From positions 4,736,001 through 4,800,000 of the forward strand of contig OZ220744.1 of the NCBI GenBank assembly GCA_965116925.1: a DNA stretch of 64,000 nt. The letters run 5' to 3'. Shown here piece after piece: positions 7,871-11,704 of the stretch. Both the position numbers and the translations under genes were made by a program. Positions within the stretch are counted from its first letter, which is position 1, and every line of letters starts with the position of its first letter. The stretch is from Candidatus Poribacteria bacterium. GTDB taxonomy: Bacteria; Poribacteria; WGA-4E; PCPOR2b. Below the pieces are notes generated by a model. It made no database searches. It was not told the DNA's origin and worked only from the letters and a program-made list of their open reading frames with translations.

Positions 7871-9139
7871 ATGATCGAAATCCAACCCCTCCAAGAACCA
7901 ATCAACACAACAGTCACAGTGCCCGGTTCAAAAAGCTACACCAATCGGGCATTGCTTGTCGCTGCGCTGGCTGAAGGACGTTCTCAATTGACAGGTGCCC
8001 TTTTCAGCGATGATACCCACTATATGTTTCAGGCGTTGCGGAAACTTGGCGTGGGGATCGAGGCGGATGAGGAAGACTGTTCATTTCAAGTAGTCGGAAA
8101 TGGCGGAAAGATTCCTGTCGATCACGCTGAACTCTACATCGGCAATGCAGGCACAGCAGCTCGTCCGCTCGTCAGTTATGTTGCACTCGGCAACGGTGAA
8201 TTTATTATTGACGGCGATGCGCCGATGCGTCGGAGTCGTCCTATTTCGGACCTGCTTGACGCGCTCAAGCAACTCGACGTTGATGTACGTTCAAAATTCG
8301 ACAACGACTTTCTGCCGTTAATTGTTCGAGCAAACGGACTCAAGGGGGGAAAAACCCGCCTCGATGCCAGCAAGAGCAGTCAGTTCTTGACTTCGCTTAT
8401 GCTCGTCGCTCCCTATGCGGAAAAAGGGATGGCGATTGAGGTTTGGGGGGAGATGAAGACACCCTACATTGACATCACTACTTCAGTGATGAAAGGGTTC
8501 GGTGTGGACGTGGCTCACGACAACTACAAATCCTTTCACATTGAAGGTGGACAACGTTACCAACCCCGCGAATACGCCATCGAGCCAGACGCTTCCAATG
8601 CCTCCTATTTCTTCGCTGCGGCTGCGGTCACCGGTGGTCGCGTCCGGGTGACTAACCTTAGCACAGATTCCGCACAGGGCGATGTCCAGTTCGTCAATGT
8701 GCTAGAACAGATGGGCTGCCAAGTGCAACGCTGCGGCGATGATATAGAAGTTATTGGACCAGAACGGCTCAAAGGAATTGATCTGGATATGAAAGCGATC
8801 TCCGACACATCGTTGACTCTCGCCGCAATTTCCCCCTTTGCGGAGAGCCCAGTGACCATTCGGAATATAGAACATACGCGCTATCAAGAAACAGATCGCA
8901 TACATGCCATGGTCACAGAACTCCGAAAACTTGGTGTCCCTGTCGTTGAACGTCAAGATGGGGTTGAGATTTCACCCTCTCTAATTACGCCTGCGGAGAT
9001 TGAAACATATAAAGACCACCGGGTTGCAATGAGTTTTTCGCTGATTGGATTGAAAGTGCCGGGGATTCGGATTAAAGATCCGGGGTGCGTAAGCAAAACC
9101 TTTCCGACTTTTTTTGATGTGTTGGCAAGATTGAGGTAG
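7871..9139 (+). CDS. aroA: 3-phosphoshikimate 1-carboxyvinyltransferase
   Basis: PGSKSYTNR, GNAGTAAR, SSQF, ETDRI, DHRVAM. Confidence 0.96.
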   Translation: MIEIQPLQEPINTTVTVPGSKSYTNRALLVAALAEGRSQLTGALFSDDTHYMFQALRKLGVGIEADEEDCSFQVVGNGGKIPVDHAELYIGNAGTAARPLVSYVALGNGEFIIDGDAPMRRSRPISDLLDALKQLDVDVRSKFDNDFLPLIVRANGLKGGKTRLDASKSSQFLTSLMLVAPYAEKGMAIEVWGEMKTPYIDITTSVMKGFGVDVAHDNYKSFHIEGGQRYQPREYAIEPDASNASYFFAAAAVTGGRVRVTNLSTDSAQGDVQFVNVLEQMGCQVQRCGDDIEVIGPERLKGIDLDMKAISDTSLTLAAISPFAESPVTIRNIEHTRYQETDRIHAMVTELRKLGVPVVERQDGVEISPSLITPAEIETYKDHRVAMSFSLIGLKVPGIRIKDPGCVSKTFPTFFDVLARLR

Positions 9140-9311
9140 AGGGCGATGAGCACCCTAAACAAAGAAGGTAGAGGATAGATGAAAGGTGTTATTTGGACGG
9201 TGGACTAATGATCTAAGGCATGAATATGTGGATAGTTGGCTCGCGGACAAAACGCGAGGCCGAATATGTATAGTTGGCAAATCTGCAGATTCATTTTAGA
9301 GGAGGTACACA

Positions 9312-10307
9312 ATGTTACGTACTTTAATTGGCTGCATCATGATTGTTTTTATGTTCGTAATTATCAGCGCAATAAGTGCAAAGGAGAAACAGATGGAAAC
9401 ATTCAAAGATCTAAAAGTTGGCATGGCAGCACCAGATTTCGCACTCAATGACGGAAATGGAACTGCCCACAGCTTACGCGATTATCTGGGGGAAAAGAAT
9501 GTCGTCTTGGCGTTTTATCCCAAAGACTTCACCGGCGGCTGAACGACAGAACTCCGCTCGCTCCGGGATGAGTTGAGCCAAATTCAGGGGACAGATACAG
9601 TCCTTTTGGGTGTCAGCGTTGATGATGAAGCCTCTCATAAAAAGTTTCAAGAGGAAGAAAATTTTGGATTCCCTCTACTCGCTGATACGGAATTCGCAGT
9701 CAGCAAGGTCTATAGCGGCATCATGGATAGATTTAAGGCTTCTAACCGATCGACCTTCATTATTGACAAAGCAGGATACATTCGTGCAATAGATCGAAAC
9801 GTGAACACGCAAACGCACGGCGAGGATCTCGTTAAACTAATCAATGAAAGCATTCCGGGACCGATTCAGGTCGGACAGCCTGCACCAGACCTTATCGCTT
9901 CCGATCAGGATGGCAACACCTATCAACTCAGCAGCTTCGAGGGGAAAAAGAACGTTGTGCTGGCGTTCTATCCCAAAGATTTCACCGGAGGCTGAACGGC
10001 AGAGGTATGCTCGCTCCGGGATGAGTCGAGTACATTTGCTGAACATGATACACAGGTCTTTGCAATTAGCGTACAAGATGCAGCGTCTCATAAGAGGTTT
10101 GCTGAAGAAAATAATCTTAACTTTCCATTGCTAGTGGACACAGGACGTCATATTAGTTTGCTCTTCGGTGCGACGGACAAACCGGACGGTTTGAGCAGTC
10201 GCATAACGGTTGTCATCGACAAAGACGGAAAGATTATCAAGCTCGATAAACAGGTCAACGCAAGGACACACGGCAAAGACCTAGCTGATTTCTTTGAGGC
10301 GATGTAA
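9312..10307 (+). CDS. Exported tandem BCP/PrxQ-type peroxiredoxin with two in-frame UGA (selenocysteine) codons, 331 aa
   Basis: ORFs 9312-9542, 9573-9995 and the untracked 9996-10307 share one frame. Both TGAs (9540, 9993) fall at the peroxidatic position of FYPKDFTGG-x. N-terminus resembles a signal peptide. Confidence 0.88.
9556..9578 (+). promoter_or_regulatory. Putative bacterial SECIS hairpin 1
   Basis: GCTCGCTC-CGGGAT-GAGTTGAGC, starting 13 nt after the UGA. Confidence 0.7.
10009..10031 (+). promoter_or_regulatory. Putative bacterial SECIS hairpin 2
   Basis: GCTCGCTC-CGGGAT-GAGTCGAGT, same 13-nt offset and identical 18-nt core. Confidence 0.7.
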
Positions 10308-10447
10308 TCTGCGCGAAAGATGGTACTTCTAAAGCCGAATTGCGAATCTAATTCACGCTGATAGCGCCTTCCATATCGGGCAAAGAATTACTTTACAATT
10401 AGCTACAATATGTGTATACTAATACCCTTGCGGGGTGGGGAAAATCT

Positions 10448-10963
10448 GTGAGAAATATTGTCCTGGTGGGTTTCATGGGAACAGGTAAGACCTCAGTGGG
10501 GAAAAGACTTGCCGAGCGTCTAGGGATGCCGATGATCGATACAGATGATATAATCGCAGAAGATAGCGGAATGGATATCCCCGACATCTTCGCTCGGTAT
10601 GGCGAACCGCACTTTAGGGATTTAGAGAGCACAGCTGTTTGTAAGGCAGCGAATCTAGAGAACCATGTGATCTCAACAGGCGGTGGGGTCGTCCTTCGAG
10701 AATCAAATTTGGATATGCTCAAGCGCAACGGTATTGTCTTCTGTTTGACAGCAACAACAGCAGAGATTTGGCGGCGTGTTAGGAGCGGAACCCATCGTCC
10801 GTTGCTGCAAGCACCCAATCCATTGGGTAGGATCGAGCAGATGCTTATAGAACGTCGTCCCTTTTATGCTCGCGCTGATCACCAGATCGTAACCACAGGA
10901 CTATCAATTAAAGCGGTTACAGATAAAATTGTAGGGATATTTCATTCCGAAAGAATCCTTTAG
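10448..10963 (+). CDS. aroK: Shikimate kinase
   Basis: GFMGTGKTSVG P-loop, DTD, GEPHFRDLE, STGGG, RPLL; GTG start assumed. Confidence 0.95.
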   Translation: MRNIVLVGFMGTGKTSVGKRLAERLGMPMIDTDDIIAEDSGMDIPDIFARYGEPHFRDLESTAVCKAANLENHVISTGGGVVLRESNLDMLKRNGIVFCLTATTAEIWRRVRSGTHRPLLQAPNPLGRIEQMLIERRPFYARADHQIVTTGLSIKAVTDKIVGIFHSERIL

Positions 10964-11037
10964 AACTTGTTTTAACAAGCAAGAAACAATCCCATGGTGC
11001 TGTGGATTTGTCAATCCACAGCGAGCCGTATCGCAGG

Positions 11038-11102
11038 GTAGGAGTTGGTTTTCCTAACCCGTCAGGCGAGGGGACCTCGCCTCTACGAAATCAAGCTCCT
11101 AC
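11038..11102. repeat. GTAG-type REP-like compound palindrome
   Basis: GTAGGAGTTGGTTT...AAATCAAGCTCCTAC enclosing GGCGAGG..CCTCGCC, which also occurs near 61804. Confidence 0.65.
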
Positions 11103-11263
11103 GATTGACCTGACACGGTTTCCTAAATTATAGCGCGAATGTGCCGCTGAGTAGTAGATTACGGAAGAAACCGAGTTTTGAAGAAAAAACTCGGTTCAGG
11201 GCAAATAACTTTACCCCAAATGGCTTTTCAAAGCTGAAAGGCCTTGCCCAGAGAAATTGATAT

Positions 11264-11704
11264 ATGAACATCTCACTGATTCACGGACCCAACCTTCAAC
11301 TCTTGGGAAGACGACAGCCTGAAATTTACGGTAGCCAGACGCTGGATGACATCAATTTACACCTAATCGAAATCGCTGCGGGACGAAGCGTTAATCTCAA
11401 GATTTTTCAGGCAAATTCCGAAGGTGAAATTGTCTCCTTTATTGGGGACAATATCGACTGGGCGGATGGCGTTATTATCAATCCTGCGGCTTACACGCAT
11501 ACGAGTGTCGCAATCCGGGATGCTCTGTCCGCTGTCAATCTCCCTGTTATTGAGATCCACCTCTCTAACGTGCACACCCGCGAGTCTTTTCGCCAGCATT
11601 CTTACATTTCTCCTATCGCTGTCGGTGTGATTTGTGGATTTGGGGCGCATGGCTATGATTTGGCGTTGGACGCGATGATTCAGGTTTTGCAGCAGGCAGA
11701 TTGA
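11264..11704 (+). CDS. aroQ: Type II 3-dehydroquinate dehydratase
   Basis: HGPNL.LLGRRQPEIYG, INPAAYTHTS, EIHLSN. Confidence 0.96.
   Translation: MNISLIHGPNLQLLGRRQPEIYGSQTLDDINLHLIEIAAGRSVNLKIFQANSEGEIVSFIGDNIDWADGVIINPAAYTHTSVAIRDALSAVNLPVIEIHLSNVHTRESFRQHSYISPIAVGVICGFGAHGYDLALDAMIQVLQQAD

Follow-up and report, generated by a model that had tools for sequence, protein, structure and literature searches.

The window analysed here is a stretch of 64,000 nucleotides from a Candidatus Poribacteria bacterium (contig OZ220744.1). On its forward strand, positions 9312-10307 hold a single reading frame of 331 codons and then a TAA, with TGA at codon 77 (9540-9542) and at codon 228 (9993-9995), and FYPKDFTGG directly before each. 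The initial annotation had proposed one 331-codon frame with two BCP/PrxQ-type domains, and the frame and the Pfam and NCBIfam matches described below agree with this; likewise, the TGA that it placed at the peroxidatic position of each domain is there, at codons 77 and 228. It had overlooked the Arg that takes the place of the resolving Cys in domain 1, as well as the further in-frame SD and ATG at 9381-9395. The two codons lie in the same context, GGC-TGA-AC (window 9537-9544 and 9990-9997); all 88 orthologues use GGC for the Gly preceding the second UGA, and this may influence readthrough. The features of the gene are as follows.

9300-9314, forward strand: outer ribosome-binding site AGGAGGT (9300-9306) and ATG (9312-9314), predicted start of the long, signal-bearing form; anti-SD duplex -13.4 kcal/mol.
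9312-9380, forward strand: putative Sec-type signal peptide, residues 1-23, with probable cleavage after Ala23, judged from the hydrophobic core and the junction residues.
9381-9395, forward strand: inner ribosome-binding site AAGGAG (9381-9386) and in-frame ATG of Met28 (9393-9395), putative start of a signal-less 304-aa form.
9411-9851, forward strand: peroxiredoxin domain 1 (BCP/PrxQ fold), with PKDFTGGU and catalytic Arg146, and without a resolving Cys (Arg82 instead).
9540-9542, forward strand: UGA 1, predicted Sec77; 88 of 89 loci have TGA, and the remaining one, a degenerate paralogue, has TCA.
9556-9578, forward strand: bSECIS-type hairpin 1, apical loop CGGGAU (9564-9569), 21 nt after the UGA; assigned from folds and frozen synonymous sites.
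9864-10304, forward strand: peroxiredoxin domain 2 (BCP/PrxQ fold), with PKDFTGGU-TAEVC, resolving Cys233 in helix 2 and catalytic Arg297.
9993-9995, forward strand: UGA 2, predicted Sec228; TGA in 89 of 89 loci.
10008-10032, forward strand: bSECIS-type hairpin 2, apical loop CGGGAU (10017-10022), 21 nt after the UGA; assigned from folding and conservation.
10305-10307, forward strand: TAA stop; the orthologues end in TAA (64), TAG (14) or TGA (11).

The gene lies between two others (window 7871-9139 and 10412-11704) that we take, from their translations, to be aroA-like and aroK/aroQ-like. Only some 20 loci share this setting, all from the same genus, and the neighbours change between lineages; among the common neighbours (the 14 largest clusters, read from sequence only) we recognised no redox partner. 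A promoter and terminator scan gave three promoter-like sites against 1.8 expected, and no terminator. Rfam returned nothing credible, only one chance snoRNA match (E 0.76). All four runs examined consist of contigs. Two RNA-library contigs cover the whole stretch with 32 differences; because DNA carry-over is possible, we do not take them as evidence of transcription. Neither TGA is altered among the 40 contig differences listed (there are 76 further ones).

Pfam AhpC-TSA (PF00578) matches the protein in two stretches (E 3.9e-72), and the NCBIfam BCP model NF006960 gives 171.6 bits against a cut-off of 140, a score reached only as the sum over two stretches; the PrxU model NF040737 falls below its cut-off (135.5 bits against 270). 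Aligned with each other, the two domains agree at 69 of 140 residues (49%). Residues 31-331, modelled with AlphaFold from 61 orthologues, reach a pLDDT of 93.2 and a pTM of 0.91, and a structure search with this model returned BCP and AhpE chains as the best matches, one domain each. The closest PDB entry by sequence is AhpE, and PrxQ and AhpE are not sharply resolved from one another. The PxxxT/SxxC(U) motif is intact in both domains of the window protein, and the catalytic arginines, Arg146 and Arg297, are invariant in all 88 orthologues. Thiol-dependent peroxidase activity is probable.

Recoding of UGA as selenocysteine requires a dedicated machinery, and the proposed check for selA, selB, selC and selD found all four by profile and tRNA matches. 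In the host genome (6.47 Mb, one contig), selA, selB and the tRNA-Sec gene adjoin one another, and selD bears an in-frame TGA of its own. The three proteins exceed their curated cut-offs, and tRNA-Sec(UCA) scores 76.6 bits. Across the phylum, selA is present in 163 of 176 genomes.

To look at the conservation of the two codons we compared 110 loci (the best 30 of one search and the best 80 of 199 confirmed), a set that is biased to close relatives and reduces to 89 distinct loci of at least 59% identity. TGA states were called from the alignment; motif patterns had missed variant second sites and given misleading counts. TGA stands at both sites in 88 of these 89 distinct Poribacteria loci. 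In the paralogue L084 the first active site has degenerated (TCA, FCPTDFLIGS), and the second has TGA. A search of 176 phylum genomes found a match in 154 of the 159 genomes of the same order, and exactly two TGA codons occur in 144 of the 150 matches listed (with 14 further matches), so the arrangement is not due to chance. G101, a genome with three TGA codons, was left out of the count of signal-peptide losses, since its sequence suggests a homopolymer frameshift. Behind Met28, dN/dS is 0.07-0.13 in all five segments, both post-UGA segments included (57-143 usable pairs of 300 sampled). Purifying selection and the conservation of two TGA codons together make a dead or split gene unlikely.

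Two expectations of the initial annotation did not hold. No Cys codon occurs at either site in any of the 89 loci, so the TGA/TGC alternation that it predicted is absent among orthologues; Cys at the motif position is seen only in distant homologues and in solved structures, and the usual pairing of Sec and Cys therefore holds only against distant homologues. The argument that two independent nonsense mutations at one catalytic codon would be far less likely than recoding also fails, because the domains are duplicates and single-domain Poribacteria relatives already carry TGA, so that a single TGA inherited from an ancestor would account for the two. It is conservation and selection that truly speak for recoding.

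Both UGAs are almost certainly read as selenocysteine, as had been proposed; the Sec machinery, the conservation of both codons and a conserved hairpin 3' of each support this. SelB and tRNA-Sec would decode each UGA with the help of its own coding-region hairpin. The alternative is that UGA is a stop in a pseudogene or split gene, a sequencing error, or a codon for Trp, Gly or Cys under a changed code. It can point to public collections, which carry the gene either as fragments of 140 aa and 61-96 aa or as full-length versions with W at both sites. In this genome, however, TGA is a normal stop that ends 763 of 2563 long open frames, RF2 is present, and the only UCA tRNA among 48 is tRNA-Sec. 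Selection persists beyond both UGAs, and exactly two TGA codons recur in 144 of the 150 matches listed; we consider this alternative very improbable.

Both hairpins fit the bSECIS model as set out in the main text of a 2026 selenoproteome review (PMC13188914), which asks for a loop of 3-9 nt, a G in the first two loop positions, a distance of 16-37 nt from the UGA and a minimum free energy of at most -7.5: each has the loop CGGGAU at 21 nt, with energies of -10.6 and -11.4 kcal/mol on 43-nt pieces. Stability measured against shuffled sequences is less telling. On 61-nt pieces, hairpin 2 has a z-score of -2.14 (-0.81 on the 43-nt piece), and hairpin 1, at z 0.48, is not more stable than its shuffles by this measure. 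The codons are more informative. The 15 columns that follow the UGAs have a mean codon homozygosity of 0.73, compared with 0.39 for 105 other columns, a difference whose p-value is overstated since the sequences are related; Leu in the hairpins is always encoded by CTC (87 of 87 and 88 of 88 sequences), and the Arg codon is solely CGG or CGT. When all 288 codon positions were scored for a G(G/U) loop at this distance, position 228 came first (88/88) and position 77 second (53/88), followed by one at 32/88, although this test was defined from the two UGA sites and is partly circular. The loop G of hairpin 2 falls within the apical loop in all 88 orthologues. Hairpin 1 adopts another register with a larger loop in 53 of 88, and its G lies in the apical loop in 21 of those 53; in many orthologues of the larger lineage it deviates from the bSECIS model. 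It is conservation, not folding energy, that provides the real evidence for SECIS hairpins here.

The relatives of the gene suggest how it arose. Sequences of domain 1 group together in a quick tree of 79 rows, with support 99, as do those of domain 2, with support 97. Since both clades span four families, the fusion is older than the order; the same tree does not resolve whether the two domains are sisters. PrxQ genes with a single domain and a TGA also occur in Poribacteria beyond this order, implying that Sec is probably older than the fusion. In one genus (g5), a single-domain, signal-less Sec-PrxQ gene occurs (L158, L172, L177 and L183; G067 has two copies), and a promoter-like site, TTGACG-17-TATAAT, lies just 5' of L158. 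The g5 gene is domain 1-like before the active site and domain 2-like after it, which suggests a collapse through recombination between the repeats. Domain-1-only genes with a signal peptide are found at L159, L160 and L161; in G005 and G011 such genes are second copies beside the tandem gene. A distant whole-query match with 28% identity and two TGA codons (G032:C1:1503440-1504372, L168) is possibly another double-Sec redoxin. A plasmid search returned three single-domain bcp genes only.

We then considered where the enzyme resides. Read from the sequence, the N-terminus combines an Arg, an uncharged hydrophobic stretch of 17 residues and the junction ISA/KEK, bearing out the claim that it resembles a signal peptide. 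Across the 86 loci in which both start regions are usable (a set that leaves out L036, L056 and L084 because no usable outer start is present in them), the extension is 27-34 codons long, keeps the frame and always contains an uncharged hydrophobic core of 11 residues, with small residues and then acidic ones at the junction; 56% of its codons have T at position 2. Its dN/dS is 0.81, so it is weakly constrained and fast evolving. With such features, we regard export of the long form as probable.

Directly behind the signal lies a second start, whose SD sits six bases 5' of the ATG at codon 28. An inner ATG or GTG with an SD-like duplex (at most -5 kcal/mol) is present in 89 of 89 loci; the outer SD and start are present in 85 of 89. 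At a stricter threshold, a start with an SD occurs at the inner offset in 84 of 86 loci and three codons earlier in 2, and the next-best offset reaches 5 of 86. In nine further, more distant loci the inner start shifts with local insertions, and eight of the nine pass the threshold. The codon itself is ATG in 33 and GTG in 53 of the 86 loci and nothing else, and the switch between them maps to one event on the tree. Among distant homologues a Met after the signal is not the rule: 19 of 119 have one. The gene has a second in-frame SD and start under selection, as expected of genes with PilB-like N-terminal proteoforms. The initial annotation had described the protein as secreted or anchored. 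A signal-bearing form fits that description, but it is probably only half of the picture, because initiation at the conserved second start, past the signal, would add a cytoplasmic form. Relatives without a signal point the same way: in G026 there are stops in the signal region and the inner SD and ATG are kept, and the single-domain gene of genus g5 begins at the inner start. From these relatives and the frozen GTG, two products are the simplest interpretation, and the gene probably makes both forms. The outer start would yield a 331-aa precursor that is exported, with a mature mass of about 34.0 kDa, and the inner start a 304-aa form of about 33.5 kDa that stays in the cytoplasm.

Two other accounts have to be weighed against dual initiation. 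If the outer start alone were used, the enzyme would be exported only, and the inner SD with its ATG or GTG would be a relic of a signal-less ancestor or kept for other reasons. In the window the outer SD is indeed the stronger (duplexes of -13.4 against -8.7 kcal/mol); acidic residues past the cleavage site would by themselves yield GAG-rich DNA; and the domain-1-only paralogues L160 and L161 have kept the signal and lost the inner SD. A relic GTG, however, would be expected to drift, yet this one shows no synonymous change in 53 sequences, against 4-18 changes in 19 other Val columns. Moreover, the codon three positions 5' of the inner start is GAG in 76 of 86 loci although Glu in the mature part favours GAA (1136 GAA, 623 GAG), and an inner start of this kind is found in just 10 of the 414 signal-like genes of the genome. 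Exclusive use of the outer start appears rather unlikely. The converse, that only the inner start is used and that the extension is not a working signal peptide, would make the enzyme purely cytoplasmic. Such an account gains from the nearly neutral evolution of the extension and from the relatives that manage without it (G026 and genus g5), but it leaves unexplained why an extension with its own SD and start in 85 of 89 loci should keep its frame, its length range, its hydrophobic core and its bias to T at position 2; we consider it quite improbable. Use of both starts is, in our judgement, rather likely. The combined reading, a two-Sec peroxidase with both starts in use, we hold with moderate confidence, and we lean, a little more cautiously, to the view that one order-wide gene supplies both sides of the inner membrane through two starts 27 codons apart.

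How would such an enzyme work? Each Sec would attack a hydroperoxide in its PxxxTxxU...R pocket. Domain 2 would then resolve through Cys233 on the same helix, forming a selenylsulfide; a helix-2 resolving Cys is reported for about 60% of PrxQ members (PMC4749874). Cys233 is the only Cys of the mature protein. Domain 1, which has no resolving Cys here, would have to regain its reduced state from domain 2 or from a thiol of another molecule. The second route leads to a further idea, compatible with the two-start reading, in which the domains are specialised: domain 1 would be the peroxidase and domain 2, with its U-x4-C, a relay that re-reduces it. The pattern of residues makes this possible. 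The motif Thr of domain 1 is present in 88 of 88 orthologues and a Cys at +5, the resolving position, is absent from that domain in 63 of 88 (present in 25, not in this genome), whereas domain 2 has the +5 Cys in 87 of 88 and Gly for Thr in 53 of 88 (Thr in 35). The pTM of the model would also imply a fixed packing of the domains. On the other hand, both pockets are canonical in this genome; the loss of Thr, which turns domain 2 into PRDFGRGU and takes it outside the PxxxT/SxxC motif, is a single event on the tree, and 24 of the 53 Thr-less orthologues have the +5 Cys in domain 1; and each domain is also found alone. Division of labour between the domains is an unlikely refinement of the two-Sec peroxidase.

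For electron donors our proposal is tentative: the exported form would plausibly be recycled through DsbD and an exported thioredoxin-like protein, and the cytoplasmic form through thioredoxin. The genome encodes a single member of the DsbD family, 619 aa long, which at 315.8 bits stays below the NCBIfam cut-off of 330. It also encodes a thioredoxin-like protein that has both a signal and WUGFC. PF00578 has 20 matches in the genome, six of them with TGA, of which two are the tandem gene. Five candidate selenoproteins have signal-like or lipoprotein-like N-termini, with TGA at 996697(+), 2098070(+), 3775202(+), 519567(-) and 150426(-) of the single contig (G000:C1): a Prx-like fusion with WUGSC, a Prx-like protein with YUPHC, the thioredoxin-like WUGFC protein, a metal-binding-type protein with MTUGGC and a WUPLC protein, labels which, apart from the Prx-like ones, were read from motifs. 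The exported form of the tandem enzyme would join this set of exported selenoproteins in a sponge-associated lineage. Four signal-less candidates (TGA at 6018658(+), 2541663(-), 1526837(+) and 4721121(-) of the same contig) include SelD, two Prx-like proteins and one that, from its motif, we presume to be formate-dehydrogenase-like. A genome-wide TGA census by codon statistics, which is noisy and incomplete, gave TGA with high coding scores on both sides at 6017887(+) and 4898682(+).

Overall, the gene is a real and conserved variant within the Sec-peroxiredoxin family, and a dual start is likely. Its chemistry and the recoding mechanism are already known. Poribacteria are common sponge associates, and a gene that nearly all genomes of one order share (154 of 159) is fragmented or mistranslated in public collections, so that the antioxidant repertoire of these bacteria and their use of selenium are misread. 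If both starts are used, the gene would be a compact example of a selenoprotein sent to two compartments through alternative initiation. It is also a natural test of bacterial readthrough of two UGAs in one mRNA. The literature listings that we searched for Poribacteria together with selenoprotein or selenocysteine concerned other subjects, and none of the listings from our literature searches describes this tandem two-Sec protein; the main text of the 2026 review mentions neither Poribacteria nor signal peptides nor the periplasm, and its supplements and the surveys that it cites could list the family (PMC13188914).

The nearest known selenoprotein is the Sec-peroxiredoxin "Prx" family (PF00578, TxxU; the Eubacterium acidaminophilum enzyme), for which the main text of that review tabulates one Sec (PMC13188914). 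The two share PxxxTxxU, an in-frame UGA accompanied by a coding-region hairpin and dependence on SelA/B/C/D; the Poribacteria gene differs in its two fused domains, two Sec, signal peptide and second start. Other predicted double selenoproteins in the same text (MbdU, MduS, methyltransferase/UXPK-star and a Prx-like UxxU protein) likewise have two Sec but belong to different families, and the "Prx-like" UxxC/UxxU is one site rather than two TxxU domains. In fold, the enzyme resembles BCP/PrxQ (NF006960; Sulfolobus Bcp1, 3drn) and the 1-Cys AhpE of M. tuberculosis (1xvw), with TM scores of 0.83-0.88 on the target. The Pro/Thr/Arg pocket is shared, and these enzymes have either a helix-2 resolving Cys, as in domain 2, or none, as in domain 1. 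The solved matches are, however, single-domain Cys enzymes, and the top ones cover less than half of the model (TMq 0.40-0.47).

Export of a PrxQ-type peroxidase has a precedent in Caulobacter PprX, described as a periplasmic PrxQ that is reduced by ScsB via TlpA (PMC3322552). The Poribacteria genome has DsbD-family and exported thioredoxin-like proteins to set beside these, but PprX is a single-domain, Cys-based enzyme, and the partners proposed here are drawn by analogy. For two starts, the closest parallel is Neisseria PilB, in which internal initiation is reported to give a periplasmic full-length and a cytoplasmic form from one antioxidant gene (PMC6210582); N-terminal proteoforms are reviewed in PMC13515050 (see also PMC2907840). 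PilB, a methionine sulfoxide reductase, drops a whole thioredoxin domain in its short form, whereas in the Poribacteria gene the signal peptide alone would be skipped. Finally, one distant protein, P0125, is a Cys-based tandem PrxQ of 375 aa that has, like the Poribacteria enzyme, a signal-like N-terminus and two intact active-site motifs, here PxxxTxxC. Unlike that enzyme, it uses Cys in the two active sites, and each of its domains has a resolving Cys; it is the sole such distant protein among the 264 proteins compared.
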